From a virus (Duplodnaviria; Heunggongvirae; Uroviricota; Caudoviricetes), in IMG/VR virus record IMGVR_UViG_3300031998_000001, positions 45,064-109,063 of that record: a DNA stretch of 64,000 nucleotides; one strand, written 5' to 3'. A program made the position numbers and the translations under genes. Position 1 is the stretch's first letter; every line of letters begins with the position of its first letter. Below, piece by piece: positions 27,911 to 42,752 of the stretch. The notes below the pieces were generated by a model. That model was not told the DNA's origin and made no database searches. It saw only the letters and a list, made by a program, of their open reading frames with translations.

Positions 27911-27944
27911 TTATTTGTCATAATAGTAATTTGTTGTTTGTTTT

Positions 27945-27983
27945 CGGGGCGGAGTGATACCCAATGTCGCCCGCCCCGTTTTT
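27945..27983 (+). terminator. Intrinsic terminator
   Basis: CGGGGCGG…CCGCCCCG followed by T5. Confidence 0.75.
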
Positions 27984-27997
27984 AATTCCCGCGAAAA

Positions 27998-28669
27998 ATG
28001 AGTTATTTTGTTGACACGCCCCTTTCCAGCGACAGGTTGAGGAAGTCGGTCGTACAGGACATAATCCCGCTTCTGCCGAAGCGCATAGACACCGCTTGGG
28101 ACATATTTTCGGGAGATGCCCTCGCTGGTGTCAACCTAATCCCGTTTTCAAATAATGTGGTGTGCAATGTTATGGACATTGACACCGAGAGGTCTATGCT
28201 CCTGATAAGGGACGGAAAGTCGGACATATCCTGTCCGAAGCGCACGCTTGACGCTTACCGCGTGGCTCTCGGAAAGGTGAAACTCGTCCACTTCTCTTGG
28301 GAGCATATAGTCCGTGTCGGCTTCGGAGGAAGGGAACTTCCGCTTTCGGCGGGGGACTTCGTGTTCTGCTACGCGCCTCTAATCGGGGAGTATGTGCCAG
28401 ACAGGTCGGACAACGGCAAGGCACGGCATCCTTTCAGGTGGACGCAGGGGAATATGTCCGAACTGCTTGGGCTTCTCTCGTCCGTCCAGTCGGCTGGTGC
28501 TGGCTTCGGTGCAGTGCTTTCGTTCGGTCGTGGCATAAGCCCGAACAGCGATGCTGTCGGCTTCTGTGAAAAGAACGGATATGAATACAGGAGGGTGGGT
28601 AGCATCAACAGTTTTTCGAGGGGGACTACGACAGACGACATAGTTTATGTCACTAACCGAAAACCATAG
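27998..28669 (+). CDS. Degenerate Dam-like (D12 class) adenine methyltransferase homolog
   Basis: IIPLLPKRIDTAWDIFSGDALAGVN…VVCNVMD and GDFVFCYAPL (DPPY replaced); central TRD region very short. Confidence 0.7.
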   Translation: MSYFVDTPLSSDRLRKSVVQDIIPLLPKRIDTAWDIFSGDALAGVNLIPFSNNVVCNVMDIDTERSMLLIRDGKSDISCPKRTLDAYRVALGKVKLVHFSWEHIVRVGFGGRELPLSAGDFVFCYAPLIGEYVPDRSDNGKARHPFRWTQGNMSELLGLLSSVQSAGAGFGAVLSFGRGISPNSDAVGFCEKNGYEYRRVGSINSFSRGTTTDDIVYVTNRKP

Positions 28670-28674
28670 AAGAT

Positions 28675-29454
28675 ATGACTGAAAACGAATTTGCCCTGCT
28701 CTCCGAAGACCTGAAGCGTCTTGCAGCGAGTATGCCGCTTGAATGGGGGGAGATGCAGAATGACAATATGGACAACCTCACCGACATATTCAGGATAAAT
28801 TCCTACGGTGAACTTGAGCGTTTCGTAGCACCGTATGCAGACAGCACGAAGGACTACGCCAGACGGAGGTGGTATCTCTACAAGTGCTCCGAATGCGACA
28901 AGCACCTTATGGCTAACAACGGCAGTGCAACGCCAGTTTCTCTCGGCGGGAGCAGGAACAGCGGGCATAACATCACGATAGGCGGGTACGACTTCGGTAT
29001 GTACTGCACGGTTGTGCCGAGACTTTTTGCCGACAACCGCATAGAGAGCCTGCTTGCCCGTCAGGAGGATATAATCGACAGTTACTATGACAGGCAGAGC
29101 AAGGAGTCGCGCAACAAGATACAGAACAGGCTCTTCGTCATACACCATTCGCTCATAGACGGTAGCAGGGAGATGGTTTTGCGGAGCGCGTGGAATGCGA
29201 AGCGCGTGCTGTACAGGAAGTTCTGCGACAGCATATCCGACATACGCTTCTATGAGACGCACGGGGTTATTGCTGGAACGATATTCCTGATAGAGAGGGA
29301 ACTCGGCAAGGTCAAGGGTGTAATCTACGGACTTGATAATAAAAATAGCAAAGATAATGAAAGTGATTGTGATAGGCGACATACACGGTCGCAGGAACTG
29401 GAAGGAACTTATAGACACGAAGGCTCTGAATGTGTTTGTCGGGGACTATTTTGA
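28675..29454 (+). CDS. Putative restriction-endonuclease-fold protein with eroded catalytic motif
   Basis: YARRRWY…CTVVP…YYDRQSKESR…QNRLFVIHHS recalled from an R-M-associated family; acidic/Lys catalytic pair not evident. Confidence 0.45.
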   Translation: MTENEFALLSEDLKRLAASMPLEWGEMQNDNMDNLTDIFRINSYGELERFVAPYADSTKDYARRRWYLYKCSECDKHLMANNGSATPVSLGGSRNSGHNITIGGYDFGMYCTVVPRLFADNRIESLLARQEDIIDSYYDRQSKESRNKIQNRLFVIHHSLIDGSREMVLRSAWNAKRVLYRKFCDSISDIRFYETHGVIAGTIFLIERELGKVKGVIYGLDNKNSKDNESDCDRRHTRSQELEGTYRHEGSECVCRGLF

Positions 29455-30100
29455 CCCGTATGACGACATATCGTTCTCGGAGCAGGCGGACAACTTCAAG
29501 GAGATTGTTGCGCTCAAGTATTCGCGCCCAGACAACTTCGTGCTGTTATACGGCAACCACGATGCCCACTACTTTATGAGGGGTGAGCGTTCGAGCAGGT
29601 ACAATGATGCCCACGCGCAGGAGACGAAGGACTTGTTCGAGTCGAGCAAGGCGTTGTTCTACGGGGTTGCATTTGCGCCAGACAACGGGCATCTTATTTC
29701 CCACGCTGGCGTTACGAGGCAGTGGGCGTACTTCAGGCTCGGATACAAGGACGGCACTCCCGTCCCGTCACCGAAGGAACTCGAAGTTATGGTGAACAGG
29801 CTGTGGAACACCGACAGGGGCGCGTTCTCGTTTATGAACAATGCGCAGGACTGGTACGACTGCTACGGCACATCGAGTTCGCACAGCCCGATTTGGGTGC
29901 GTGACGAAACCCTTGTGAACAATGCGATAAACAACGGCTGCGGGTGGATACAGGTCGTGGGGCATACCCAGCACCCGAAGGTCGAAAGATGGCAGGACTG
30001 CGTATTCGTTGACTGTCTCGGCTTCTCGACGGATGCCTATGTGTTTGAAACGGAAAGTTTAACTGAAAATACCGATAGCGATGGCAAGGACAACAAGTAA
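29357..30100 (+). CDS. Metallophosphoesterase (intact motifs)
   Basis: GDIHG, GDYFD, GNHD, SHAG, GHT. Confidence 0.88.
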   Translation: MKVIVIGDIHGRRNWKELIDTKALNVFVGDYFDPYDDISFSEQADNFKEIVALKYSRPDNFVLLYGNHDAHYFMRGERSSRYNDAHAQETKDLFESSKALFYGVAFAPDNGHLISHAGVTRQWAYFRLGYKDGTPVPSPKELEVMVNRLWNTDRGAFSFMNNAQDWYDCYGTSSSHSPIWVRDETLVNNAINNGCGWIQVVGHTQHPKVERWQDCVFVDCLGFSTDAYVFETESLTENTDSDGKDNK

Positions 30101-30776
30101 AAAGACGAGCAAGGGCAAGGGGAGCGAAAAGCGTTACCTTGTCGAAGTGAACAGGGAGCAACTGTGGGTTCTCGAAAATATGACGGAGATTATGATGCGC
30201 CTCATCTGCGGGCAACTCGACATTGCCCTGACGAACATCTTTATGAAGGCGTATGAAAAGAACTTCCCGACACAGGCGAGGGACGCTGACGGAAAGTTGA
30301 CGCAGGCGTACTGGGACAAGCGCGATACGCTGACCGTCCATATAAACGAGTTCAGGCGCGAATACTGGAACTGCGTGAGCCAATACTTCGGAGTGAACTA
30401 TGACAACGAAGCGGACATACTTTATGATATGCATCAGGTCATACGCAAGTTCCGCTACGACCACCTGTTCACCAAGAAGGAGCAGGATGAGATGAAATAT
30501 ACGGTTATGGCTAACACCCCGCTTTCATTCGGGAGCGAGCCTCTCATCCGCATATTCGAGCGTACTGGCTTCGACAAGGACAAGTTCATCGGCGAGGCGG
30601 TGAAGTTCGTCAAGACGATAACGGACAAGTGCGACATCATATTCAGGAAGTCTGGCGAGAAGGTCAACGGGAAGATACTCGTGGACGACTTCAAGCGTCT
30701 GCTCGGTGAAATCGACTGCGGTGAACTCTCGAAAGCCGATATGGAGGCGAGCGAGGGGAATATAAATAATAAGTAA
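30081..30776 (+). CDS. Hypothetical protein
   Basis: 231-aa ORF in operon. Confidence 0.7.
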   Translation: MARTTSKKTSKGKGSEKRYLVEVNREQLWVLENMTEIMMRLICGQLDIALTNIFMKAYEKNFPTQARDADGKLTQAYWDKRDTLTVHINEFRREYWNCVSQYFGVNYDNEADILYDMHQVIRKFRYDHLFTKKEQDEMKYTVMANTPLSFGSEPLIRIFERTGFDKDKFIGEAVKFVKTITDKCDIIFRKSGEKVNGKILVDDFKRLLGEIDCGELSKADMEASEGNINNK

Positions 30777-30787
30777 AATTTAACATT

Positions 30788-31258
30788 ATGTCATATAATT
30801 TTTTAGATGATTTGAAAAAGGCGGGTTTCTATGAGATTTTCGGAAACCCGAAGTTCTATGCCGCCTGCAACGGCAACGGCTGTAACTGCCACAGCAACAA
30901 TGAAAGCAATGAAGCACCAGAACCAGACGACTTCTACGAGGACGGCGGGGACTGGCGTGCGCAGGTGAAGGACGGCGAGTTCTTTCTGCACGCGATAGCG
31001 ACTGGAAACGAAAAGGAGGACTGCATCGTGAAGGTCAACAAGGACAAGGGCGTGCTTGTCGTCAAGAACAGGATTGACGACGACATACTCAATGACGATG
31101 ATTTCTGGTTCATACACAGCATAGACATCCGTGTAAGGCTTCCGAAGCACATAGACTACAAGTCGTTCCGCAAGGAGGTCGAGAACGGTGTGCTTATCGT
31201 GACGGCTGACATCGTGAAGCCAGCCGAGAAGAAGGATGAGGAGATTACGGTCGAGTAG
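30788..31258 (+). CDS. Small heat-shock protein (Hsp20/alpha-crystallin domain)
   Basis: IRVRLPKHID…KEVENGVLIVTAD…KKDEEITVE; TATAAATA at 30761..30768. Confidence 0.8.
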   Translation: MSYNFLDDLKKAGFYEIFGNPKFYAACNGNGCNCHSNNESNEAPEPDDFYEDGGDWRAQVKDGEFFLHAIATGNEKEDCIVKVNKDKGVLVVKNRIDDDILNDDDFWFIHSIDIRVRLPKHIDYKSFRKEVENGVLIVTADIVKPAEKKDEEITVE

Positions 31259-31277
31259 CAGTGCTTTCCGTGCGATA

Positions 31278-31297
31278 TATAAATAAGTTATATATAA
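31278..31297 (+). promoter_or_regulatory. T4-type late promoter, extended form
   Basis: TATAAATAAGTTATATATAA at the head of the tagged-gene cluster. Confidence 0.75.
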
Positions 31298-31308
31298 GCA
31301 TATTTGAT

Positions 31309-31656
31309 ATGGTAAGTAGATACGGTGAATTTAGGGATAGCGGGTGCTTTGTTTCAGAGCCGTGCTATATTTCCCAAGTTGTCGAGAACAAGGCGCACGC
31401 CATACTTGTCTATTATGACAGGTACGAAACCGCGATGGCTTTCGGGTATGACGATATATCCGAACTTGCATCCGAGTGGAGCAAGAAAGCCCCAGAGATA
31501 ACCACGAATCGTGGCACAAGGCTGTCGTTTGAAGAAATGTACGGGCGTGAACTGGAGGACATTGATGCCCTTATGACTGGTGAGTCGTATTCGTTCCTGC
31601 CTCCTGCTGCGAACGGTCTGCCAAGGAAAAGAATAATCGTTCTTAAAATCAAATGA
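31309..31656 (+). CDS. CTS-like tagged protein
   Basis: N-terminus MVSRYGEFRD. Confidence 0.6.
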   Translation: MVSRYGEFRDSGCFVSEPCYISQVVENKAHAILVYYDRYETAMAFGYDDISELASEWSKKAPEITTNRGTRLSFEEMYGRELEDIDALMTGESYSFLPPAANGLPRKRIIVLKIK

Positions 31657-31684
31657 AGTCGGAAGAATAATATAAGGTCGAGAT

Positions 31685-32296
31685 ATGGTACACATTAAAC
31701 GGTTGGACGAAATGATGACACCGAATGTAACTGGTGGTGTAGCAAATATTGATGAGATTGTCAGGAAATATAATCTCAAATACAATGAAGATACAGGTCG
31801 CTATGATTGTAACGGTAATGTAGATGTCGTTAGTGCAAAGGATGATTTGGTTGCAAATGGAAGATTTGTCATTCCGTTTGGTGTCGTTAGCGGAAATTTC
31901 TATTGCCAGCACATTCGTCTTGAATCCCTTAATGGTGCGCCAACGGAAGTCGGCGGTACTTTCTACTGCCAGTATAATAGGTTCAGTACGCTCGAAGGCG
32001 CACCAAGTAAGGTTGGTAGAGATTTTATCTGTGCATATAATTATTATCTTACATCAATCAAGGGTGCGCCAGCGGAAGTCGGCGGAGATTTTTTTTGTAG
32101 CCATTGCAAAATAGAATCGCTCGAAGGCGCACCGAGAAAAGTCGGTGGTGATTTTGAATGTTGCGATAATCATTTGACATCGCTCGAAGGCGCACCGCAG
32201 GAAGTGGGCGGTGAATTTGATTGTAGGGGTAATAAACTTATTTCCCTTGATGGTGCACCCGAAAAGGTTGGTAGTATGCTTTCTGATTTTGATTAA
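31685..32296 (+). CDS. CTS-like tagged 21-aa LRR-like repeat protein
   Basis: MVHIKRLDEM tag; 5-6 repeats LxSLEGAPxxVGGxFxCxxN. Confidence 0.85.
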   Translation: MVHIKRLDEMMTPNVTGGVANIDEIVRKYNLKYNEDTGRYDCNGNVDVVSAKDDLVANGRFVIPFGVVSGNFYCQHIRLESLNGAPTEVGGTFYCQYNRFSTLEGAPSKVGRDFICAYNYYLTSIKGAPAEVGGDFFCSHCKIESLEGAPRKVGGDFECCDNHLTSLEGAPQEVGGEFDCRGNKLISLDGAPEKVGSMLSDFD

Positions 32297-32309
32297 GGAT
32301 TTTTGGCTT

Positions 32310-32645
32310 ATGCGCATATTCAGGTTCATACGGGCTTTGTTCAGGCATATTTTTGCGGGGCGCGAGAATGTATATTTCGCCGAGTACATCGAGAGGCTTC
32401 GCACCTGCAACAAGTGCGAGCATATCGACAAGCGCAAATACACCTGCGGTGTCTGCGGTTGCAAGATGGATGTCAAGTGCAAGTGGGCGGACAGCGAGTG
32501 TGCGATAGGCAGGTGGAAGGTCGTATCGGACGATAAGCCCGCGAAGACTTCACTCCCGACCTGTTCGGATTGCGCCAAGTATTCCGCCTGTGCGTTGAGT
32601 CTCGGCTCTCACGATGTAATATGCGAGAACTATGAGAGTAAATAA
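32310..32645 (+). CDS. Small Cys-rich (zinc-binding) protein
   Basis: RLRTCNKC…CGVCGC…CAIGRW plus CSDC…C…C. Confidence 0.65.
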   Translation: MRIFRFIRALFRHIFAGRENVYFAEYIERLRTCNKCEHIDKRKYTCGVCGCKMDVKCKWADSECAIGRWKVVSDDKPAKTSLPTCSDCAKYSACALSLGSHDVICENYESK

Positions 32646-32663
32646 TATATATCTTATTGTAGG

Positions 32664-33281
32664 ATGGTAAAGAAATTCAGTGAGTTTATAGCCGAGTCGT
32701 CGCTTCCAGACTATGAGGCGTTGCCTTACAATCCGAAAGGCACGGGCGAGGACTTCTACAAATATGTGTACGGGCTTTTCCCGAAGGAGTGGAGGACGCT
32801 GGAGGAAACGGAGGTCGGCACGATATGGGTGCATAGCGACATAACATCGCCCATAACGAAGAAGGTCATTGTTGATGCCAGCGAGGGCAATGTCTATCAT
32901 TATTTCAGGAAGGCGAGCGACGGCACTTGGGATGAGTTCGAGAAGCGCGATATGTCGCGCGACAGCAACGAGCCAGTGGAGCACGGTGTCGTTGTCACCA
33001 ACAATGACATTATGGACGCAAGCGGCAGGTATCTCGGCTTGTACGCGCCAGCATACGACAGGAACGGAAACCTCGTATGCTACCCCACGACAGGGAAGGA
33101 CAGGAGCGGCTTGTATGTTATGAAGGGCATACGCCCGATATTGTTTTCCGAACTTTGGAACGACTGTGGCGAGGAACTTCGCGCCGAGTCAAACGGCAGG
33201 CGGGGTACAGTGTGCCTTTACGATGGGCACGGGCACAAGTGGGTTGCACGCGACTGTGACGAGTTAAGGAGGTTCATATAA
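32664..33281 (+). CDS. CTS-like tagged protein
   Basis: MVKKFSEFIAE, the closest match to T4 MKTYQEFIAE. Confidence 0.75.
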   Translation: MVKKFSEFIAESSLPDYEALPYNPKGTGEDFYKYVYGLFPKEWRTLEETEVGTIWVHSDITSPITKKVIVDASEGNVYHYFRKASDGTWDEFEKRDMSRDSNEPVEHGVVVTNNDIMDASGRYLGLYAPAYDRNGNLVCYPTTGKDRSGLYVMKGIRPILFSELWNDCGEELRAESNGRRGTVCLYDGHGHKWVARDCDELRRFI

Positions 33282-33300
33282 AATATATAATGTTGGAATT

Positions 33301-33750
33301 ATGATAAAGAGATTTGAAGACTTTGAAAATATAGATGATGTTACCGCTGGTGCAAAGGTCGTAACCCGCGAAGGGGAACTTAAGGACATACTTCCCGTTC
33401 TCGCTGGATGCCTTGACGAGATATCAAGGTTGTCTGGGTGGTTCGGCTCACCAGAGATGGTTGCGAAGTGCAAGGTTGATGGCGATACTGCATATTATGA
33501 AATGGAGTCGAAGACCCAATGGGCTAATGACGGTTATCTTTTGCTATATATGATGCCACAGACATTTACTCCGTACCTGCTGTTCGGTTTCTCGGAGAAT
33601 GATGTCGATTTGCATCATTTGAAAATCAGCGACCTGTCGTTCAGCATCAAGGATGTCGAACACAAGTTTGCGGTCACGAGCAGGATAAGGAGGATTGACC
33701 CGACGGATGGTGTCAATAGGTTGATTGCGAAGGTTCGGGTGCATAATTAA
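33301..33750 (+). CDS. CTS-like tagged protein, paralog of 33903..34400
   Basis: MIKRFEDFE; CKVDGDTAYYE vs CKVENGIAYYE. Confidence 0.7.
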   Translation: MIKRFEDFENIDDVTAGAKVVTREGELKDILPVLAGCLDEISRLSGWFGSPEMVAKCKVDGDTAYYEMESKTQWANDGYLLLYMMPQTFTPYLLFGFSENDVDLHHLKISDLSFSIKDVEHKFAVTSRIRRIDPTDGVNRLIAKVRVHN

Positions 33751-33791
33751 ACACGGCTACTTGTATTTTTTTTACTTTTTAGTTTTGTCTC

Positions 33792-33824
33792 AAGGTCGGG
33801 AATCCCAAGCCCGACCTTCTTTTT
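33792..33824 (+). terminator. Intrinsic terminator
   Basis: AAGGTCGGG…CCCGACCTT followed by T run. Confidence 0.8.
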
Positions 33825-33877
33825 CTGAAATCATTATAAATAGCCAATATATTAGTGTCGGAGAGAATTTATAAATA
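33825..33877 (+). promoter_or_regulatory. Bipartite CTGAAA motif with nested TATAAATA, plus second TATAAATA at 33870
   Basis: CTGAAA-TCATTATAAATAGC-CAATATATTAG; TATAAATAAGTTATAT at 33870. Confidence 0.7.
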
Positions 33878-33902
33878 AGTTATATAGTATAAACATTTTA
33901 TT

Positions 33903-34400
33903 ATGGTTAAGAGATACAGCGAATTTATAACGGAAGGAAGGAGCGAATACATAATGTCGAGGCTCGCGCTCGGATTTGCCCTTGAAGTGAAGCGCAAGTC
34001 GGAGGACGGAAGTTTCGCCCGCGACTGCAAGGTCGAGAACGGCATAGCGTACTATGAGTACGACAGCATATATGAGCCAGACGCAATGACAAGGCACAAC
34101 GGGGATTTTGTCCTTATGGTTCTTCCAGACAACCAGAACCCCCAGTTCCTTGCTGGGTATGTGTCTCACGATATGCCCGTTGACAAGATAAGTTTCAGGA
34201 ATGTGAACGCGCTCGACCTCAATGACGGTGAACTCGCAGACCTCCGAAGCCGAGTGAGCGTCAATATGGCTGGCAACGGTGTGAGGATGCTTATCATAAA
34301 GGCTCGCATAGACGACGACAAGAGGACGGAAACACCTCCGATAAGGATTACTCCGACAAGGGCTTCTGGTCTTGCGCTACATAAACTTCCAGAATGGTAG
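33903..34400 (+). CDS. CTS-like tagged protein
   Basis: MVKRYSEFITE. Confidence 0.75.
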   Translation: MVKRYSEFITEGRSEYIMSRLALGFALEVKRKSEDGSFARDCKVENGIAYYEYDSIYEPDAMTRHNGDFVLMVLPDNQNPQFLAGYVSHDMPVDKISFRNVNALDLNDGELADLRSRVSVNMAGNGVRMLIIKARIDDDKRTETPPIRITPTRASGLALHKLPEW

Positions 34401-34466
34401 GAGAATAATTGCTTATGCTTCATATAGTACACATAAGGAAGAAATAGAATATATAATAGTACGGAT

Positions 34467-35147
34467 ATGATACACATCAAGAGATTAAATGAGATGGCTT
34501 CCCAGCAGGAAAGCCTCGATTTTCCAGAATATGCAAGGGAGAATGTCGCGTTCCGTATGGACAAGGCGATGTCGGGGTACTACAGGCTTCTTATGTATAG
34601 CCCCGAAGCGGAGAAGCGTCACTATGGCGGGCAGAGCGTATTCCTTTCGGACGACCCCGCAGCGGAGGATATGTTCGACTATGACATCGCAAGGGAGCAG
34701 TTCGAGGAATATCTCTCGGAGAAATTTGATGACCGCACCCTCAATGTGATAAACCGCGCAGTCGGAGAGTTCAACTACCAACTTTCGGACACACCGAAGG
34801 ATATGGGCGAGTACGACATAGAGGAACTCGTGTGCGAGTGCGAGAACTTGATTTTCGACAAGGTTGCTTCTGATGGTGAATATGATTATTGTGAACTTCA
34901 CTACTCTGGGCATAACCAGTATTACAACTACTATGACGGTGACTTTACGAAGAACTGCTCTGGGGAAATCTGGCATTATGACAGGCGCGGGGATTTTTAT
35001 GGCGAGAACAGCAACGGGGAAATCGACTTCGACCACCCGTTGAAGGGCTATGAACTCGAACGCGGACGCTCATACGCATTCATATACGACAGGGTTATAA
35101 ATTCCGATGCGAAGGTTGTCGGGCTTTATGACTTCTACAAGGAATAG
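34467..35147 (+). CDS. CTS-like tagged acidic protein
   Basis: MIHIKRLNEM. Confidence 0.75.
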   Translation: MIHIKRLNEMASQQESLDFPEYARENVAFRMDKAMSGYYRLLMYSPEAEKRHYGGQSVFLSDDPAAEDMFDYDIAREQFEEYLSEKFDDRTLNVINRAVGEFNYQLSDTPKDMGEYDIEELVCECENLIFDKVASDGEYDYCELHYSGHNQYYNYYDGDFTKNCSGEIWHYDRRGDFYGENSNGEIDFDHPLKGYELERGRSYAFIYDRVINSDAKVVGLYDFYKE

Positions 35148-35150
35148 GAT

Positions 35151-35402
35151 ATGCCAGTAAAGACCTTTGACGAATACACGGCAAGCGGTAAGGTCAATGA
35201 TGCTCCGTTTGTCGGTGCTTACTTCCGCGTTGACATAGTAGAGGTTGCGGGCAAGGAGACCGTTAGGATTGGGGAGATAGTCCAGATATTGCATTGCACC
35301 GATATTGACGGAGAGCCTGACGAGAACATTTGCGCTGGCACGGACTACAATGAGTTGCCTATAACGATTATGGGCGTGCTGTATGATATAAGGAAGAAAT
35401 AG
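35151..35402 (+). CDS. CTS-like tagged small protein
   Basis: MPVKTFDEYTAS. Confidence 0.7.
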   Translation: MPVKTFDEYTASGKVNDAPFVGAYFRVDIVEVAGKETVRIGEIVQILHCTDIDGEPDENICAGTDYNELPITIMGVLYDIRKK

Positions 35403-35420
35403 AATATATAATATAATAGT

Positions 35421-35885
35421 ATGGCTATGATACACATTAAGAGATTGAACGAGATGATGAACCAGAACGATGAGGTTCGGTTCGCAAACCCAGAGAACCA
35501 GATGCGCTTTGAGCGTTTTAAGGAGATTTGTGAGGAAGACGGGTGGAAACTCTATATCACTAATCAGAGAGGTGAAGCGTGCATAGATGTTTCCAAGTAT
35601 TCGGATGCTGGTCAGGACTTCACATTTACCATTTGTACAAAACCGGAAGACAGGAGTGACATATATTTCCACTCGCTTGTTGACGACTATGCCGAAGGAT
35701 ACGATGTCGATGACGAGGCTAAAATCTGGTGCGAGGGCACTGGCGAGTTTGATGACGACGGCAACGAGATACTTGTTGGCAAGAACGGTGCGCCCCACGA
35801 CTACGAGGATGTGGTTGCCGATATGCAGAATTGCCTCGACAATATGAAGAGCCTTGCCTTCAACTTGAAGAAGGAGAATATATAG
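35421..35885 (+). CDS. CTS-like tagged protein
   Basis: (MA)MIHIKRLNEM; body SKYSDAGQDF…GKNGAP. Confidence 0.75.
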   Translation: MAMIHIKRLNEMMNQNDEVRFANPENQMRFERFKEICEEDGWKLYITNQRGEACIDVSKYSDAGQDFTFTICTKPEDRSDIYFHSLVDDYAEGYDVDDEAKIWCEGTGEFDDDGNEILVGKNGAPHDYEDVVADMQNCLDNMKSLAFNLKKENI

Positions 35886-35894
35886 CATAGTGTT

Positions 35895-36476
35895 ATGCCA
35901 GTAAAGACTTTTGACGAATACACCGCAAGCCCGAAGGGGAAGAACGGGCGCATAGTGCTGTACCACGGCACGAAGTCCGCGTTCGACCGTTTCGACAGGC
36001 AGTTCGTGAACAGCGGCTGGGGAGAGCAGGCGTACGGCTACGGCTTCTACTTTACGGACGACTATGAGTGTGCGAGCCAGTACAGCCGCAACGGGAGCGT
36101 CATCCGCGTTTCCGTCCCTTCGGGGAAGTACCTTTCGTACAAGGGTATTTCCCGCGCGGAGGCAATGGCAGTCGCCCGCAAGTTCTTCAGGTATTACACG
36201 GAGGTCGATGACTACGGCAGGGAGGCGTATCCCGATGCCGAGTCGAGGCGCGAGTTCTGGGACGGTGAGTGCAAGTACCTCGCCGACTGCGAGGACGGAG
36301 GTGACATATACGGCACTGTCGCCTCTATGATGGGAAGCGACGAGGAGACGAGTTCGTTCCTCCGTTCGCTCGGCTATGTCGGGATAAAGTTCCCGGCAGA
36401 TGACGGAAGCACCGGGCGGGAGTTTACCAACTATGTGATATTCGATGAAAAGGACATTGAGATAATAAAAAAGTAA
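35895..36476 (+). CDS. CTS-like tagged ADP-ribosyltransferase-fold protein (ART-PolyVal-like)
   Basis: LYHGT…GYGFYFT…ASQY…GYVGI…NYVIFD; tag MPVKTFDEYTAS. Confidence 0.75.
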   Translation: MPVKTFDEYTASPKGKNGRIVLYHGTKSAFDRFDRQFVNSGWGEQAYGYGFYFTDDYECASQYSRNGSVIRVSVPSGKYLSYKGISRAEAMAVARKFFRYYTEVDDYGREAYPDAESRREFWDGECKYLADCEDGGDIYGTVASMMGSDEETSSFLRSLGYVGIKFPADDGSTGREFTNYVIFDEKDIEIIKK

Positions 36477-36480
36477 TGCT

Positions 36481-36843
36481 ATGGTACACATAAAGAGACT
36501 TAACGAAATGTTCGGGAATATTCGGAAGTATCTGAGTGATGATTCCGACTGGTTCTTTGGTGGCGAGGAAGGCGCAAACCGTTGGATGGATGCAGAAATG
36601 CGCAGAAAAAAGAATGCACGCTTGTTTGACTTGAACTGGAATGTACTTAAAGGCGTAACCGATGATGATATGGCGGTTATGTGCGGTTCGGACATTTCCG
36701 CTGCACGCTGGAAGGTAGCCAAGTGCATACGGCTCGGTATCGCTTTCGAGGACTTGCTTGCCGATGTGCGCTTTTGCAGGGGGTTGAATAAAAAGGAGGC
36801 TCTTGCCGTTGAAAGCAGGTTGAGAGATATGTTTGAAGAATAG
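36481..36843 (+). CDS. CTS-like tagged protein
   Basis: MVHIKRLNEM. Confidence 0.7.
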   Translation: MVHIKRLNEMFGNIRKYLSDDSDWFFGGEEGANRWMDAEMRRKKNARLFDLNWNVLKGVTDDDMAVMCGSDISAARWKVAKCIRLGIAFEDLLADVRFCRGLNKKEALAVESRLRDMFEE

Positions 36844-36867
36844 GTGTTATAATATAAACTTGAAATT

Positions 36868-37548
36868 ATGGCGCATATACTAAATTTCAATGATTTTATC
36901 GCGGAGTACCGCAGTGTCGGCGGAAACAGCGGATATGTCGGCTACTCGATGAGCGTCCGCGCGGCGGAAGCGAGGCGGGACGGGAAGTTTCCCAAGACCG
37001 ACTTCAAGCGCGAGTACGGGATGAGCGACAAGGTTCTGTCCGAACTTGTTTCGTTCGGCTACATCGACAACAGCGAATGGCATCATACGTCGAAGTTCGG
37101 GAATCGCACTACATTCTATTCTTTCTTGGACGAGCCGTACAGGGACTGCTGGCTGGAGCACTCGGACGAGATAAAGGCGTTAATCAGGAAAGGCGACGAC
37201 GAAGCCATCGTCGCGCTGTTTGACAATTATCGGGACGAAGCCCTCGCGGAGCACGAACGACGGATGAAAAAAATAGAGGACGAAAACGAGGAATATATGC
37301 GCTACAAGGACGAGTACCGCAAGGCGCACGACAAGTTTGACGACAGCGTTCCGTTCGTGGCTTCCAACGGATATACGGTCAAGGGCTATGAAACGGTCTA
37401 TAACCAAGACGGTGAGATTTGCACCAAGCGTCATTGCCGCAGCGGGCGCGACCTTGCCCGCTCGGAATACCTGAAAGCGAAGAACAAATGGACGGAGGGG
37501 CTGTTGACACCACAGGAGTATTTCGCACGGAAGGAGAAAAATGTTTAG
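36868..37548 (+). CDS. CTS-like tagged protein
   Basis: MAHILNFNDFIAE; body GYVGYSMSVRA…EWHHTSKF. Confidence 0.75.
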   Translation: MAHILNFNDFIAEYRSVGGNSGYVGYSMSVRAAEARRDGKFPKTDFKREYGMSDKVLSELVSFGYIDNSEWHHTSKFGNRTTFYSFLDEPYRDCWLEHSDEIKALIRKGDDEAIVALFDNYRDEALAEHERRMKKIEDENEEYMRYKDEYRKAHDKFDDSVPFVASNGYTVKGYETVYNQDGEICTKRHCRSGRDLARSEYLKAKNKWTEGLLTPQEYFARKEKNV

Positions 37549-37556
37549 CAACCCAT

Positions 37557-38183
37557 ATGATACACATTAAGAGAATAGACGAGATGGCAGGCGGCAAGCA
37601 GTACACCTGCATAGTCGAGAGCGACACGAAGGACATCGACAGGCTCTGGGCTGTCGCGGTATGCACGGAGAACGAGAGCGAATACAATGGACTCGCACAG
37701 TTGTCATACGACACGAGGGGCGAAATGTCGTTCGAGTTTAAGGGCGAGTGGGCTTCTGGCAGGGAGGAGATTGAGTGCTACGGTAAAACGCTCGACTACA
37801 AGAAGTTCAGGCGTATGTTCAATGACGACCTCAAAGGCTCGAAACGGCTTCACAGGTACACTATGAAGAACCCCGTCGGGGATATGTACGAGCACCACAT
37901 TTACGGGGACAGGGACAAGGGGGATGTAATCGAACTTTCCGACAGACCAGTCCTCGACGGGATAACCCGCCCGTATGTGCAGAGCGAGTGGGAGAGCGCG
38001 TGCGATAGGGAGATACGGGTTTTCGAGAGGAAGTTCGGGACTGAACTCTATCGGCTCGGTCGCGGTGGCAGGCACTTGTGCGTGGAGAACACCCGCGAAA
38101 ACCGCGTGCGTTTCTTGGAGATGCTCGAAGAACTTGACAGGGCACTGGACAGGACGCTCGAAGCATACAACAGAATGAAGTGA
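37557..38183 (+). CDS. CTS-like tagged protein
   Basis: True start MIHIKRIDEM at 37557 inside track ORF 37419..38183. Confidence 0.75.
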   Translation: MIHIKRIDEMAGGKQYTCIVESDTKDIDRLWAVAVCTENESEYNGLAQLSYDTRGEMSFEFKGEWASGREEIECYGKTLDYKKFRRMFNDDLKGSKRLHRYTMKNPVGDMYEHHIYGDRDKGDVIELSDRPVLDGITRPYVQSEWESACDREIRVFERKFGTELYRLGRGGRHLCVENTRENRVRFLEMLEELDRALDRTLEAYNRMK

Positions 38184-38217
38184 TATAAATAATAGGAATA
38201 ATATAAACTTTGATGCT

Positions 38218-39162
38218 ATGGCGCATATATTGAAATTTGAAGATTTCTGCAAGTCCCGCTTCAACGAAAGCAGGGAGTATGACCGTCCGACGAGAAGGTC
38301 GTACCGCAGGCTGTACGAGAGTGAGAACGCCGACGCTGTGTTTGCAAAGCACAAGGGTGATGAACTCACCAAGACCGATGCGGAGGACGCATACAAGATT
38401 GCGGTCGAGATGCTCGGAAAGGAAAACGCGAAGAGCATATACGGAACGGAGGATGAATTTGCCGAAAGGTATGACGCTGCGCAGGAAAGCGCGGAAAAGA
38501 ACGGCAAGTACAAGAGGGGTGCTATGCCAGTCATAAACAACTCCAACTTCAAGGGCTTCAGCGGTGGCAAGGACGACAAGGACAGCGCACCGAGAAAGGA
38601 AGAACTTGAAAAGGTGCTTGACGAGAAGGATGTTGACAAGAAGATTAAGGACGCTGTGTTGAGCAATCAGGTGGTTGCCTTCAAGTTCCTTGTGGGAAAC
38701 GGCTTCATTGACATCAGTGGCGAGGACAAGGACATTGCGAAGAAAACCCAGCAGGACTTGTTCAAGGACGATGCTCTTGCGCAGGAATGGCTTTCGAGCG
38801 GTGGGGGACTGAAGGACACGAAGGATGTCGTCAAGGGCGACTACGAGTACATTTCGGTAGAAGACCTCAAGCCTATACAGGAGCAGATATTCGTGGCGAA
38901 GGCTTTGAAGATGTCGGCGGGCGCGGAAGGCGACAAGGGGAAGTTGAACTGGTTGCTCAAGGCTGACGAGAAGAGTCCGCTCGTAATCGTAAGTTCGGAC
39001 AACTACATACTCGACGGACACCACAGGTGGCTGGGCGCATATCTGGTTGACCCAGACGCGAAGATGAGGTGCGTGAAGATTGATATGGACTGCAAGGACT
39101 TGCTCGCCCTTACCAACAAGTTCACGGGCGCAATCGGAAACAAGCCGAATGTAACCGCATAA
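38218..39162 (+). CDS. CTS-like tagged protein with C-terminal ParB/Srx-like domain
   Basis: MAHILKFEDF…RFNE; LKPIQEQI…PLVIVSSDNYILDGHHRW; TATAAATA at 38184..38191. Confidence 0.8.
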   Translation: MAHILKFEDFCKSRFNESREYDRPTRRSYRRLYESENADAVFAKHKGDELTKTDAEDAYKIAVEMLGKENAKSIYGTEDEFAERYDAAQESAEKNGKYKRGAMPVINNSNFKGFSGGKDDKDSAPRKEELEKVLDEKDVDKKIKDAVLSNQVVAFKFLVGNGFIDISGEDKDIAKKTQQDLFKDDALAQEWLSSGGGLKDTKDVVKGDYEYISVEDLKPIQEQIFVAKALKMSAGAEGDKGKLNWLLKADEKSPLVIVSSDNYILDGHHRWLGAYLVDPDAKMRCVKIDMDCKDLLALTNKFTGAIGNKPNVTA

Positions 39163-39193
39163 TAATATAAATGGTTATGGTGCATATCAGCCG

Positions 39194-39523
39194 ATGATAA
39201 CGATGAAGATTAAATACGAAGCGAGCGATGAGGCGAGGGCGTTCATCCTGAAGTGCAGGCGGCAGTATTCGTCCGCGCTCCGCTTCGCGTACAACCGTGT
39301 CATCGGCGGCTGGAGCGGTAATGAAAGAAAAAAGATAAAGCACAGTATAGTGTTTCCAGACGGCGAAGCCTACAGAGCGTCCATCTCCAAGTCGCTGGAA
39401 GAATTTGGACTGGACGACGGCACGACCCTTCTGGAAGCGTATGAGGCGTTAAAAAAGTCTGGAGACAGATACAGGCTTTCCCATCAGTCTTTGGCGGATG
39501 GTTTAAGGTGCTTTCCCATATAA
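39194..39523 (+). pseudogene. Probable 5' remnant of an IS200/IS605 tnpB-like gene fused to unrelated sequence
   Basis: MITMKIKY…RRQYSSALRFAYNR resembles a TnpB N-terminal helix; no RuvC or zinc finger. Confidence 0.5.
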
Positions 39524-39532
39524 TATAACGAA

Positions 39533-39892
39533 ATGTTTATGAATGATAAAAAGCAACATCTGAAGACATACATTGACATAAAGAATGACGAGTTGAAGGA
39601 AGCCGAACTTCTTGAACGGTTCATAGAACTCTATTCGTCGGAGGTCAATTCCAACGAACTCCGCTCGGCTTTGCAGTCGGTTGACTTGCAGAAGATGATA
39701 AGTGAGTCGCAGGAGACGGACGAGGGCTTGCTCGGCGGTGTCGCTGGGTTTGTCGGAGGTCTTGCCTTCGGCACCAAACTCGGTGACGCTATCTGCCGTG
39801 CGCTCGGAATAACGAAGGGGCTTCTCTACGACCTGTTCCACTCGAAACTGTTTACGACTGCGGTCTGCACGATACTTGGGGTGAAGATGTAG
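39533..39892 (+). CDS. Hypothetical protein with Gly-rich hydrophobic segment
   Basis: GLLGGVAGFVGGLAFG; N-terminus MNDKKQ shared with topoisomerase gp52-like gene. Confidence 0.65.
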   Translation: MFMNDKKQHLKTYIDIKNDELKEAELLERFIELYSSEVNSNELRSALQSVDLQKMISESQETDEGLLGGVAGFVGGLAFGTKLGDAICRALGITKGLLYDLFHSKLFTTAVCTILGVKM

Positions 39893-39907
39893 AATAAAAT
39901 TTGGATT

Positions 39908-40477
39908 ATGGTACACATTAAGAGGATAGATGAGATGTACGGCTACGGATTGCTGTTTGACAATATGCCTTCCGCCGATACGGACGAATGCAGACCTGTT
40001 GGTTGCGACTCCGCGAAAATAAAGGCGATACTCCAGCAGGACGCGGCGAAAAGGATAATCAGGAAATATGACGCGAATATCGGTTATGGTAGCGGAAATA
40101 TTACGCTTGCGATTTTCTTTGAGGGAAATCGGAATGAAGACGCATCGCTCTACTGGAAAAACAAGGAGTCGGCGGAGAAAAAAATCCAGAACCTGATTCA
40201 CGAACTTGATGTCGAGACCGAACTCTATTTCGAGGTTGCTTACAGCGGTAATGTCGGCTGGGATGCCGACAAGAATGTGTACGATGCGGGCGGTATCTGG
40301 GACTATGATAGAATGATTGACGAGTCGAAGTACCCGTTCGAGATGTTCTATGGTCTGAAGGGTGCGATAACGGCTTTTGCGAACGCGCACGGCAAGGACA
40401 ACACGATGTGCGTGTGCTTCAGTTGGAACAGGTATAAATACCAGTTAAAGGGCTACGCCAGTTCAACGAAATCTTGA
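39908..40477 (+). CDS. CTS-like tagged protein
   Basis: MVHIKRIDEM. Confidence 0.75.
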   Translation: MVHIKRIDEMYGYGLLFDNMPSADTDECRPVGCDSAKIKAILQQDAAKRIIRKYDANIGYGSGNITLAIFFEGNRNEDASLYWKNKESAEKKIQNLIHELDVETELYFEVAYSGNVGWDADKNVYDAGGIWDYDRMIDESKYPFEMFYGLKGAITAFANAHGKDNTMCVCFSWNRYKYQLKGYASSTKS

Positions 40478-40521
40478 TAAAAACTATGAATAGTTATTAA
40501 ATCTGACGGCATATAAATAAT

Positions 40522-41772
40522 ATGATGTTAAGGGCGTTGAAGATACGGCTATATCCCAGCGGGGAACAGCAGACCAAGATGAACAAGGTCTTGGGTTGCT
40601 ACCGCTTCGTATATAACCAGTGCCTTGAACGGAAGATGAACGCATACAAGGAAGATGGAAGTTCGTTAGGTCTGACTGACCTGTCCAAGTGGTTTCACGG
40701 AACATTGCTTAAAGATGATAAGTATGCTTGGCTTCGCGAGCAGAACACGAAGGTTATGAAGCAGTCCATAAGGCAGATGCTCGGTGCATACAATAACTTC
40801 TTTAAACTCCATAGGGGCTTCCCGAAGTTTAAGAGCAAGCACGACACCGTTCTGACGGCTCTATTTCCCATCGAGGCAATATCATCCCGTAACACATTCG
40901 ACGATAGAAAGATAACATTAACCAAAGATTTATATAACATTCGTTTCAGGTGCTCCAAGTTATACCACAACAAGTTAAAATTGTTCAAGGACAATATAAG
41001 GAGTGCAAACCTGTCGAGAACCAAGACGGGCAATTATTTCCTTTCAGTCCTTATGGACATTCCAGACGAAGAACTGGTTAAATACAGGAAGACTGGAAAC
41101 AGCGTGGGCATAGACTTGGGTGTTAAGGATTTTGTTATAACCAGTGACGGTGAGGTGTTCGAGAACAAACACTTCCTTAAACGCACGGAGCACAGGATTA
41201 AAGTGTTGCATAAGCAGTTGAGCAGGAAGGTGAAAGGCTCGAACAACCGTATGAAGCAAAGGGTTAGGCTTGCGACTGCCTATGAACGGCTGACCAACCA
41301 GAATGAGGCGTACATACACTATGTTGTAAACTCGTTGCTGAAGGATTACGATACGGTGTTTATGGAAGACCTTAATGTCAAGGGTATGCTGAAGAACCAT
41401 AGACTTGCGAAGGCTATCGCCGAGGTCGGCTTGTACAGGTTCAGGCAGGTCTTGACCGACAAGGCTATGCTAAACGGCAAGAGCGTAGTCTTTGTCGATA
41501 GGTTCTATCCGAGTTCAAAGACCTGTTCCGTATGTGGTTACATAAAGCGTGACTTGACGCTCAATGACCGCGAGTGGACTTGTCCCGTATGCGGAACGCA
41601 CCACGACCGAGACTTGAACGCCTCGATAAACATCTTGAACGAAGGAAAACGAATTGTAGGTGTCCGTAGCACCGAACTTACGCCTGTGGACTGCCCAACT
41701 ATGGATGACCGTTGTGCAAGCAACCTAAAAAGTAGCGGCAGGGCGAAGCAGGAAGGAGGGACAGATGAATAG
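40522..41772 (+). CDS. tnpB: TnpB RNA-guided endonuclease (IS200/IS605 family), no tnpA nearby
   Basis: HTH N-terminus ALKIRLYP, RuvC motifs GIDLG, EDLNV, HDRDLNASINI; zinc finger CSVCG…CPVCG. Confidence 0.93.
   Translation: MMLRALKIRLYPSGEQQTKMNKVLGCYRFVYNQCLERKMNAYKEDGSSLGLTDLSKWFHGTLLKDDKYAWLREQNTKVMKQSIRQMLGAYNNFFKLHRGFPKFKSKHDTVLTALFPIEAISSRNTFDDRKITLTKDLYNIRFRCSKLYHNKLKLFKDNIRSANLSRTKTGNYFLSVLMDIPDEELVKYRKTGNSVGIDLGVKDFVITSDGEVFENKHFLKRTEHRIKVLHKQLSRKVKGSNNRMKQRVRLATAYERLTNQNEAYIHYVVNSLLKDYDTVFMEDLNVKGMLKNHRLAKAIAEVGLYRFRQVLTDKAMLNGKSVVFVDRFYPSSKTCSVCGYIKRDLTLNDREWTCPVCGTHHDRDLNASINILNEGKRIVGVRSTELTPVDCPTMDDRCASNLKSSGRAKQEGGTDE
41665..41760 (+). ncRNA. Probable omegaRNA scaffold overlapping the 3' end of tnpB
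   Basis: Position follows known TnpB biology; tail after the last RuvC motif ends …GCGAAGCAGGAAGG; limits are estimates. Confidence 0.4.
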
Positions 41773-42100
41773 CATAGTTTTTCATAGGTTTTTTCCATAC
41801 GGTGATATGCTCGAATACGCCAAGTCCTACATCGGCAGGAAATATCCGAAACTGGATATATGCCTTACCACTGGGAAGCGGGCTTTGGACAGCGGGCAAC
41901 CCTACGAGGCTTTTGTCGTGGAGTACAGGAACGCCAAGACAGCGTTTGACCAGAAGGGGAGTTTTGTGATAACGCAGAACAAGTTCGGCGACGGTACTGC
42001 GGTGGTGCGTGCCCCGCTTGCTGGTCAAAGCGAACGGAAGTTCGATTTCAACGACTGGCGGAAGGAGTTGGAGGAAATCATAGACTGGCTTTGCAATTAG
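41765..42100 (+). CDS. Hypothetical protein
   Basis: 111-aa ORF overlapping tnpB stop; true start may be MLEYAK. Confidence 0.6.
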   Translation: MNSIVFHRFFPYGDMLEYAKSYIGRKYPKLDICLTTGKRALDSGQPYEAFVVEYRNAKTAFDQKGSFVITQNKFGDGTAVVRAPLAGQSERKFDFNDWRKELEEIIDWLCN

Positions 42101-42124
42101 ACAGTATAATATATTTTTTGCACT

Positions 42125-42751
42125 ATGACGGCGAAATATTCAATGGATGAGTATGATGCTCTCGTGATATACGACAGACCTGTGTCGGACAAGGGCGGTG
42201 CGGAGTTCGAGTCGTCCATATTCTATGACGAGGGGGAGGCGTTTGCCGATGCCCGCAAGTATGTGGGCGCAGGCAAGTGTGACAGCGCAAGGGTGTACCG
42301 CTACAACGGCACTGCAAGGGAATATCTGTTCGCGAAGTCAACCGACCGCCTTCTCGACAAATGCACCCTCATAGGCGAGGTCAACAGGAGGGGGACTACC
42401 CTCTATGACAGGCGCGGGAAGGTCGTCACGGAATATGACGATATGTATGAGGGCGAAGGCGTGCTCACATACGGGGAGTTCCTGAACGAGAGTATGCAGT
42501 TGCCCGAAATAGAGTTCGAGTGTACTTGCGCCGACATATCCCAGAGCGAATGGGACAGGCTTATGAAGGGCAGGCGCAAGTATTCGTACAGGAAGATTGT
42601 CGAGGCGATACGGAGGACATATCCAGAGATGTACGAGCAACTCGGACTTATGTATAACAATCCGTGGTCTGATGATACATACCGTACAAGCACCCATATA
42701 ATAATGACGCACTCCGCTACGGAGTATTTCTTCCGTGTAATCAGGTGGTAG
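42125..42751 (+). CDS. Two-part hypothetical protein with internal CTS-like motif
   Basis: Internal GVLTYGEFLNE (GTG at 42461) resembles MGVLRYNEFITE. Confidence 0.65.
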   Translation: MTAKYSMDEYDALVIYDRPVSDKGGAEFESSIFYDEGEAFADARKYVGAGKCDSARVYRYNGTAREYLFAKSTDRLLDKCTLIGEVNRRGTTLYDRRGKVVTEYDDMYEGEGVLTYGEFLNESMQLPEIEFECTCADISQSEWDRLMKGRRKYSYRKIVEAIRRTYPEMYEQLGLMYNNPWSDDTYRTSTHIIMTHSATEYFFRVIRW

Positions 42752-42752
42752 G

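Follow-up and report, generated by a model that had tools for sequence, protein, structure and literature searches.

A hypervariable array of tagged genes in a huge rumen phage, probably encoding capsid-loaded proteins and shuffled through shared leader and tag modules

The closest described counterparts of the locus reported here are the internal protein (ip) loci of T-even phages, whose products carry a capsid-targeting sequence (CTS) and are processed by gp21 (Mullaney & Black 1996 and Repoila et al. 1994, as cited in PMC5694885 and PMC2839356). A single cut removes the T4 CTS, MKTYQEFIAE (PMC8442874); it is through this sequence that T4 internal head proteins dock onto the core, and T4 Alt is cut at ITE-6 (PMC5694885). 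Loading driven by the CTS does not depend on a basic protein, as foreign proteins fused to it are packaged in T4 (PMC3012670, PMC8442874). A second counterpart is the modular shuffling of promoter-early stem-loop (PeSL) cassettes in the hyperplastic regions of T4-type phages (Arbiol et al. 2010, PMC2839356; Comeau et al. 2014, PMC4122927), where a repeated promoter element borders the ORFans that distinguish close relatives, and crossovers fall between the -10 box and the ATG; the PeSL paper also treats the ip loci and Repoila et al. 1994 (PMC2839356). Here we describe an array of small genes that begin with a short CTS-like tag and occupy 31.3-42.1 kb (~11 kb, hereafter the island) of a 64,000-nucleotide (nt) stretch of viral DNA, the window, which comprises bases 45064-109063 of a 387,654-bp IMG/VR virus record with an estimated completeness of 93%.

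We conclude that the island is probably a hypervariable gene array whose products are loaded into the capsid (internal or ejection proteins) and whose members are shuffled via shared 5' modules. Each cassette consists of a short A/T-rich leader, of the TATAAATA or the ATAATATAA type, whose motifs are also found upstream of the portal and major capsid genes; a 10-12-codon tag, h-[KR]-[KR]-[FYL]-x-[ED]-[FM], in some genes extended to ...FIAE; and an unrelated protein body. By analogy with T4, the tag would dock the protein onto the prohead scaffolding core, a gp21-family protease would then cut after [LI]xE, and the trimmed protein, an ADP-ribosyltransferase (ART) for example, would pass into the host along with the DNA. 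With nearly the same 30-70 nt opening every cassette, exchanges among misaligned cassettes or co-infecting relatives delete, duplicate, replace and re-tag bodies. The executors are probably the phage's own T4-like recombination genes; selection retains in-frame products, and microhomology joins and TnpB-type elements contribute further turnover.

The source is a huge rumen phage whose gene content indicates a T4-like head together with a T4-like core for replication and recombination. Genes for a T4-type prohead protease (Peptidase_S77, 2.2e-9), a Gp23-type major capsid protein (9.3e-24) and a T4-type portal (Portal_T4, 2.3e-65) were found in the genome, and the window includes Rad50/Mre11-like, gp32-like, FEN and topoisomerase II genes; no match to Phage_sheath_1 was found in the genome. 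The sequencing runs that held the island were bovine and goat gut metagenomes. Between the Hsp20 gene and tnpB, we recovered all 14 tagged genes that a sequence-only reading of the window had counted (starts at 31309, 31685, 32664, 33301, 33903, 34467, 35151, 35427, 35895, 36481, 36868, 37557, 38218 and 39908). All island genes lie on the + strand, and the untagged open reading frames (ORFs) inside the run number three (32310, 39194 and 39533). The T4 capsid-targeting-like tags are 10-12 residues long, share the core [IVLM][KRLSH][KRNTS][FYLIM]x[EDN][FYM] in every variant, and are mainly of the variant MxHIKR[LI][ND]EM. Genome-wide, 40 of 526 crude ORFs had this core in their first 12 residues, whereas its internal frequency predicts 0.5. 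With the hand-curated island genes the count rose to 47 and, as further variants were found later, it stands at 47 at least; the tagged genes are scattered across the whole genome and not confined to the island. The bodies behind the shared 5' DNA had been described as unrelated, and BLASTP agrees, finding no mutual similarity apart from the distant paralogues 33301 and 33903 (24% over 152 amino acids (aa), E 1e-6). Pfam and PHROGs searches with the island's cargo proteins returned only ART-PolyVal, phrog_2859 and a sub-threshold phrog_36647, and Pfam gave nothing above the cut-off for 10 tagged proteins elsewhere in the genome.

Close relatives, all of them short-read assemblies, were reached by two routes. 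Logan contigs of four runs from four studies were aligned to 27000-46000, and homologues of the ART protein, with their cluster members, led to contigs L030-L037, L040-L044 and L060 (L labels denote relatives' contigs; X6, X7, X11 and X12 denote sequencing runs). Run X6 yielded short, scattered pieces and no usable joints. The Logan contigs proved collinear and ~95% identical, with cassette-sized gaps, and blocks shared with relatives were mostly 92-98% identical in nt. Gene maps of the relatives placed seven variable slots between Hsp20 and 42125, with collinear flanks (Table 1), and at least 25 cargo families were found across eight strain types. Comparing relatives at this locus had been set beforehand as the test of cassette shuffling: gene order and content are not fixed, and breakpoints fall at a leader, a start codon or the end of a tag.

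Table 1. Occupants of the variable slots in the window and in relatives.
Slot	Window	Relatives
Hsp20-32310	31309 + 31685	31309 only: L034, X11; none: L030, X12
32310-32664	none	352-aa homologue of 31685 with other tag: L030
33301-33903	none	149-aa gene: L030, L041; 601-aa TnpB-like gene: L034-L036
33903-ART	34467 + 35151 + 35427	140-aa gene + 35427: L030; 35427 only: X11, L041, L044; none: L034-L037, X12
ART-37557	36481 + 36868	160-aa + 36868: L034; 102-aa: L030; 159-aa: L042, L060 (shortened in L041); 36868 only: X11, X7, L040; none: L044
37557-39533	38218 + element remnant	122-aa: L030; 151-aa: L037; none: L034; 162 + 298 + 91-aa: L040
39533-42125	294-aa gene split by TnpB	intact 294-aa: L041, L060, X11; none: L030, L034, L037

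These population data support the proposal that cassettes are shuffled at leader/tag repeats, with some turnover from other causes. In L034-L037, a 160-aa cassette is bracketed by the 22-nt direct repeat ATTAGTCGTATGGYGCATATA, of the form (G/A)ATTAGTCGTATGG(T/C)GCATATA, which joins 11 nt of leader to the first 11 nt of a tag; in X11, X7 and L040 (at least three samples) the cassette is missing and the repeat is single-copy. In L044, the ART gene runs straight into the 37557 body via a hybrid tag, with 1.2 kb gone: bases 1-20 of the hybrid are those of the 160-aa gene's tag and bases 16-30 those of the 37557 tag. The hybrid, known from one contig, is the cleanest evidence for a crossover within a tag. 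L034, L037 and X12 match the window through ...GTACGrATATG at 34469 and then continue with the ART gene, a crossover at the ATG inside a 31-nt, 77% leader repeat. Repeats R1 and R2 around 34467 and 35151 also place variable genes between copies of an element, which is not true of every junction.

Across the relatives, homology to the window resumed at 32301/32309/32310, 35177, 35426, 35894, 35909, 36867, 37557, 39558 and 42114/42124, positions between -11 and +45 nt relative to a start codon. It broke off in leaders (31297, 31305, 38187-38207, 39897-39902), at an ATG (34465-34469), where the following gene's tag ends (36508-36510) or close to stop codons. Two candidates were discarded. The skip of 34370-35425 in X11 is not a simple R1 x R2 recombinant, since L041 and L044 have the same arrangement with a different 33903 3' end and leader; and joints leading from 45641 to 35426, 37555, 39906 or 44770 were set aside as tag-only similarity.

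Bodies also exchanged their 5' ends. The body of gene 31309 occurs with three alternative 5' ends, MGGVKKYGEF in L034 and MAHIKRIDETINSDF+IKKYGEF in L040 besides that of the window, and the L040 body is 92% identical in nt from 31320 on. The L030 homologue of 31685 (54% identity) carries another tag (MVRIKNLDEFITEG). The tandem repeats of 31685 itself (31918-32274, 63 nt) encode GAPxxVGGxFxCxxNxLxSLE units, and run X6 contained many divergent copies of the repeat in other contexts. Gene 35151 is a fusion at a shared ACGGCAAGC (residues TAS): its L030 orthologue spans 140 aa and has a tag of its own, MVHIRRLNEM, with homology from ~35174, and the relic at 34424-34447 can be matched to the start (ATGGTACACATCAGG) and to the 3' end of this intact L030 gene. 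Relatives carry intact genes that confirm both relic tags (34424-34447 and 39177-39197). In a different phage lineage (L038:10001-10650 and L039:3026-3680), the ART body, 89% identical in nt from 35940 on, stands behind the resident leader and tag (MKILSINEFASA) and trails a 19-codon relic of the window's downstream tag; normally this locus holds a 58%-identical ART orthologue (P0019). The arrangement looks like an allelic replacement between co-occurring phages. ART homologues (51-95% identity) mostly start with a tag like that of the window's ART gene, P0023 and P0027 being exceptions. Gene 38218 is 94.6% identical in aa in L060, versus 76% for Hsp20 and 78% for ART, and the L040 block at 35909-38125 is 91-93% identical in nt versus 71-86% for the backbone; by these identities, cassettes can be younger than the backbone.

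Three pairs of gene starts in the window had been put forward as reused DNA. The MPVKTFDEYTAS starts of 35151 and 35895 (35151-35186 versus 35895-35930) are identical at 34 of 36 nt, and nine of 11 codons match, versus 4.4 expected from genome codon usage (P(>=9) = 0.004), which is above the expectation from the peptide motif; the repeat arose because 35151 carries the ART gene's tag by fusion. The leader and tag repeat at ~34442 and ~35398 is real and longer than the ~55 nt claimed: R1 and R2 (34433-34496 versus 35388-35456, 64/69 nt) have 59 matches, one 5-nt indel and a 26-nt perfect run, and their leader score of 26 ranks second among 378 pairs of MxHIKR-tagged genes (mean 8.6, standard deviation 3.8). 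One copy of their first 15 nt (ATAAGGAAGAAATAG) encodes the final codons and stop of 35151, the other copy being non-coding, and R1 opens with a gene's last codons because the dead start and the end of the 140-aa gene survive at 34424-34447. The third pair, the ATGGCGCATAT starts of 36868 and 38218 (36860-36896 versus 38210-38246), is 76% identical over 37 nt, with four of seven shared-residue codons matching as read off the gene starts; this is what the motif and codon bias give, and we dropped the pair as evidence of DNA reuse. Similarity at motif level, which would speak against reuse, was thus found for the ATGGCGCATAT pair and for tag DNA in general, whereas the MPVKTFDEYTAS pair and R1/R2 exceed it. 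Recent copying is, on this comparison, limited to particular modules. Outside the island, two tagged genes 180 kb apart, C1:158754 (-) and C1:338440 (-) (window-relative 113691 and 293377), have leaders that are near-identical over ~45 nt. Their leader score of 49 is the top of the 378 pairs; therefore, leader reuse is not confined to the island.

The leaders and tag ends bear on expression and packaging. TATAAATA is the T4 late promoter; it occurs 127 times in the genome versus 13 expected, and starts 29-38 nt upstream of the ATGs of tagged genes. Its class-1 form, TATAAATAA[GT], stands upstream of 40% of tagged versus 10% of other ORFs, and of the portal gene too, and the capsid and protease genes have an ATAATA/ATATAA-type leader that is also seen inside the island. 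From these leaders we infer that the TATAAATA-led tagged genes may be expressed late. A second, class-2 intergenic motif, TTTTCTGAAATYATWATAAATAGCCWATATATTAGTGTYGGAAGG, was observed at 33820-33863, after a GC hairpin with a T-run and before a TATAAATA element, and at no fewer than 17 other sites in the genome; it is probably another promoter class. At the protein level, [LI]xE occurs in residues 4-14 of 27 of 40 tagged versus 52 of 486 untagged ORFs. Tags end as MVKKFSEFIAE↓S, MVKRYSEFITE↓G, MAHILNFNDFIAE↓Y or MxHIKR(L/I)(N/D)E↓M, the arrow marking the predicted cleavage point. Codons within tags vary synonymously (CGG/AGA, TTG/CTT), a pattern that suggests selection on the peptide. The tagged island proteins all have isoelectric points of 4.3-6.6, and the ART-PolyVal enzyme among the cargo is a parallel to packaged T4 Alt.

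The likeness to the T-even ip loci is extensive: a short tag at the N-terminus with almost the same consensus (xKxFxEFIAE) and, in nine of the 14 island genes, with [LI]xE at its end, unrelated and polymorphic bodies, genes clustered in a locus that differs between close relatives, homologues of gp21, gp23 and gp20 in the window's phage, an ADP-ribosyltransferase among the cargo (T4 Alt in that system), and a conserved 5' regulatory sequence, proposed there as the exchange site. However, the ip system comprises a handful of genes in two small loci, whereas the island has 14 and the genome at least 47, spread genome-wide. The main tag variant here is the MxHIKR type, the proteins are acidic rather than basic, packaging is predicted from the genes alone, and the leaders are late-promoter-like (TATAAATA), whereas the IP-associated elements are described as early-promoter-based (PMC2839356). 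As with PeSL cassettes, a repeated regulatory element bounds variable ORFs, and one element is left at the empty site. Unlike in PeSL, the repeated unit reaches into coding sequence, the tag, with one crossover inside it; the motif is late-promoter-like rather than sigma-70-like early; and, where PeSL combines promoter and stem-loop, a stem-loop was seen here at 33792-33824, other leaders not having been folded. TnpB-type elements take part here, unlike in either system. Polyvalent or ejected effectors (ART-PolyVal, PF18760) share with the island an ART-PolyVal domain on a protein predicted to travel with the DNA; there it is a domain of one giant polyvalent protein, whereas here each effector has a separate small tagged gene. 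Integron cassette arrays likewise consist of exchangeable single-gene cassettes that are lined up near a promoter and share a boundary sequence, but the Pfam/PHROGs annotation shows no integrase among the island genes, and exchange in the island appears to proceed by general homologous and microhomology recombination.

Several observations weigh against an array of capsid-loaded proteins shuffled via tags. Tag DNA identity is 24.5/30 nt within the island versus 22.9/30 genome-wide (28 MxHIKR tags), and codon identity at shared residues is 0.57 versus 0.56; with island tag DNA barely above other pairs, the peptide motif is sufficient to account for the likeness of tags at the DNA level. Because this general likeness is motif plus codon bias, homology-driven exchange is demonstrated for particular junctions only. 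A number of events reflect microhomology deletion or fusion, or TnpB-type insertion, and not tag recombination: no repeat is present at junction J1, in L030 the deletion of 38218 runs from the leader to 40 nt before the stop and keeps the last ~40 nt, and a strain-specific TnpB element (40466-41800) splits a 294-aa tagged gene into 39908-40477 and 41765-42100. The hybrid tag is known from one 2.9-kb Logan contig, and an exact protein look-up and an IMG/VR pattern scan found it in no other contig. Breakpoints at gene borders are equally expected from selection against broken genes. As for packaging, nine of 14 island tags have [LI]xE at residues 7-13, the other five having FDE, DFE or no clear site; the tagged island proteins are all acidic, unlike the highly basic T4 IPI-III (PMC8442874); and packaging, cleavage and late timing of the tagged proteins are predictions by analogy. 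Part of this evidence would fit an ordinary hyperplastic region, in which illegitimate or microhomology recombination and mobile elements generate the differences, selection removes gene-breaking events, and the leader/tag repeats are functional and non-causal. Such a region would account for tag DNA identity at the motif-predicted level, for J1 and the L030 deletion, for the fusion of 35151 via only ~9-12 nt of chance homology, and for TnpB-type insertions in three slots. We nevertheless consider it an unlikely account, given a 22-nt leader and tag repeat that flanks a cassette and is single in the samples that lack it, the L044 hybrid tag, a crossover at the ATG within a leader repeat, and right-hand breakpoints that repeatedly fall <=1 nt from an ATG, tighter than gene-integrity selection needs.

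Shuffling could also be real and the tag serve a purpose other than capsid loading, for example translation initiation on leader-poor mRNAs, another target or partner, or regulated degradation. The acidic cargo, the very large capsid cargo that 47 or more tagged genes would make, and Pfam matches confined to the ART, with nothing above the cut-off for the 10 other tagged proteins, are in its favor. We think this improbable: the tags are close to the T4 CTS, down to the ...EFIAE ending, [LI]xE is enriched at their ends, the phage has a gp21-family protease and a T4-type head, tagged, portal and capsid genes have upstream motifs in common, synonymous variation argues against an mRNA-level signal, and the tagged ART parallels packaged T4 Alt. 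That the differences in gene content are metagenome assembly chimeras across repeated tags would be consistent with the use of short-read assemblies alone and with tags that recur many times per genome; it is nonetheless very improbable. Identical variant structures came from independent samples, studies and assemblers (L030-L033; L034-L036; X7/X11/L040), and this recurrence makes assembly error unlikely. Moreover, the shared stretches are shorter than the 31-nt Logan index words (the tag is 30 nt with mismatches, and the longest perfect run is 26 nt), MEGAHIT-style record names (k141_...) suggest longer words still, and junctions contain unique filler bases such as GGATTAGTCG and CACA.

Mobile elements left their own traces. 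In X7, X11, X12 and L041, 25-28 nt stand in place of the TnpB element, and the 294-aa gene of L041 is intact. The right end of this element supplies a new ATG (MNSIVFHRFFPY) in frame with the downstream half of the split gene, and a TATAAATA motif lies directly upstream of tnpB. The 1.5-kb element decayed in the island has intact copies at window-relative 161033-162424 and 295899-297290, in genome coordinates C1:206096-207487 (L045:297-1688) and C1:340962-342353 (-), and a further stretch of it lies at window 47523-47567. Its 463-aa protein had no Pfam match and no PDB sequence match; the N-terminal region has weak, in-register similarity to TnpB (22% over 135 aa). Where the 3' end of the element (...GGTTTTTAATATGAATGATAAAAAGCAAYATYTG) meets the downstream gene, it takes the place of that gene's ATG and provides a new start, MNDKKQ(H/Y)L. 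Such replacement starts precede three different genes in the window's genome, and in L037 the 33301 ATG is replaced by the element end, adding MNDKKQHL.

Table 2. Features of the island and its borders, in window coordinates.
Feature	Coordinates	Strand	Remarks
Hsp20 gene	30788..31258	+	Pfam HSP20; conserved left border; collinear in L030, L034, L040, L060
Class-1 element TATAAATAAGTTATATATAA, T4-late-promoter-like	31278..31297	+	L030/X12 breakpoint directly after, so the element then drives the 32310 gene
Tagged gene MVSRYGEF, 115 aa	31309..31656	+	absent in L030, X12
Tagged gene MVHIKRLDEM, 203 aa, 63-nt internal repeats	31685..32296	+	absent in X11, L034, X12
Untagged Cys-rich gene	32310..32645	+	conserved: in every strain covering it
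Tagged gene MVKKFSEFIAE↓S, 205 aa	32664..33281	+	6/10 residues equal T4 CTS MKTYQEFIAE (PMC8442874)
Tagged gene MIKRFEDFE, 149 aa	33301..33750	+	distant paralogue of 33903
Composite intergenic element, insertion hot spot	33792..33887	+	GC hairpin + T-run 33792-33824; class-2 motif 33820-33863; class-1 TATAAATA 33870-33887; site of the insertions in slot 33301-33903 (Table 1)
Tagged gene MVKRYSEFITE↓G, 165 aa	33903..34400	+	kept in all strains; alternative 3' end in L041, L044
Relic of deleted tagged gene	34424..34447	+	dead tag start ATAGTACACATAAGG joined to last codons + stop AAGAAATAG; position-specific scoring matrix score 16.5
Repeat R1: gene-end fragment + leader + tag	34433..34496	+	DNA self-comparison
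Tagged gene MIHIKRLNEM, 226 aa	34467..35147	+	absent from X11, X12, L030, L034, L037, L041, L044; so far appears specific to the window's strain type
Chimeric 83-aa gene, tag MPVKTFDEY	35151..35402	+	ART tag + last 71 codons of a 140-aa gene
Repeat R2: 35151 end + leader + 35427 tag	35388..35456	+	DNA self-comparison
Tagged gene MIHIKRLNEM, 152 aa	35427..35885	+	in L030, L041, L044, X11; absent in L034-L037, X12, L040
Tagged ADP-ribosyltransferase, 193 aa, conserved anchor	35895..36476	+	Pfam ART-PolyVal PF18760, 3.7e-10
Tagged gene MVHIKRLNEM, 120 aa	36481..36843	+	one of at least 6 alternative slot occupants
Tagged gene MAHILNFNDFIAE↓Y, 226 aa	36868..37548	+	absent in L030, L044
Tagged gene MIHIKRIDEM, 208 aa	37557..38183	+	conserved body; hybrid tag on body in L044
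Class-1 TATAAATA leader of 38218	38184..38208	+	L030, L034, L037, X12 breakpoints at 38187-38207
Tagged gene MAHILKFEDF, 314 aa	38218..39162	+	phrog_2859; atlas feature hits to ParB_N/ParBc_2 clusters, 0.92
Second relic tag ATGGTGCATATCAGCCGATGA, MVHISR-stop	39177..39197	+	start of 91-aa gene MVMIHIKKVNEM after same slot in L040
Decayed copy of 1.5-kb mobile element	39194..39562	+	ORF 39194-39523 = N- + C-terminal parts of 463-aa protein; 3' end 39539-39562
Gene with MKTY... start at 39560 in relatives	39533..39892	+	here ATG -> CTG; 8-9 codon extension from mobile-element end
Tagged gene MVHIKRIDEM, cut by TnpB insertion	39908..40477	+	intact at 294 aa in L041, L060
IS200/605-type TnpB element; tnpB 40522-41772	40466..41800	+	Pfam OrfB_IS605, Cas12f1-like_TNB, HTH_OrfB_IS605
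C-terminal remainder of split 294-aa gene	41765..42100	+	new start from IS end
Conserved right border gene, 208 aa	42125..42751	+	topoisomerase II large subunit next

Features of the island and its borders are collected in Table 2. From its cluster hits, the product of 38218 may possibly have a ParB-like nuclease fold, which we treat as a lead only; a PDB sequence search with it returned nothing. To the right of the island, an extra gene of ~730-790 nt for a 243-aa N6_N4 DNA methyltransferase was present at 44736-44761 in L030, L031 and X11, between the topoisomerase gene and 44762. It marks a variable slot outside the island. The 45650 gene is 316 aa long here versus 376 aa in L030 and L034, and a 31-codon ORF at 46626-46721 bears a perfect tag, MVHIRRIDEK, and is probably a truncated cargo gene.

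Wider searches gave more distant material. A megablast of INPHARED with the island gave zero matches and hence no cultured relative in that phage collection. In IMG/VR, a search with the anchor 30081-30776 found nothing, and a scan for the tag-DNA pattern found three contigs, none spanning the island. IMG/VR relatives identified through the topoisomerase gene (L002-L008, 50-71% aa identity) were set aside as too distant, with the island absent at that location. These genomes, of lower GC, have their own longer tag type, MKILxxxxFVNEKLxIKPVT, on clustered small genes; from them, the tag system seems to be widespread and the tag itself variable within the phage group. Our literature search found no paper linking capsid-targeting tags to huge gut phages.

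Injected phage proteins form a first line of counter-defence. To our knowledge, few injected phage proteins are known beyond T4, and their evolution has mostly been inferred. If the island probably encodes such proteins, as we propose, natural rumen populations hold a base-level record of how an injected repertoire turns over, through loss, a hybrid tag, re-tagging, transfer to another lineage and relics. The record lends comparative support to the old T-even ip proposal that conserved 5' sequences drive cassette exchange. Anti-defence screens could also draw on the 25 or more candidate injected effectors catalogued here, nearly all without an assigned function, and the array suggests a mining rule for huge-phage genomes in which the tag serves as a pointer to cargo. 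More tentatively, and with some doubt on our part, the CTS tag may double as a portable recombination site in huge T4-headed gut phages, so that the ~50 tagged genes of one genome and those of co-infecting relatives form one exchangeable pool of injected effectors. If true, such a pool would resemble an integron that lacks an integrase, with new bodies captured in frame behind a ready promoter and address label.

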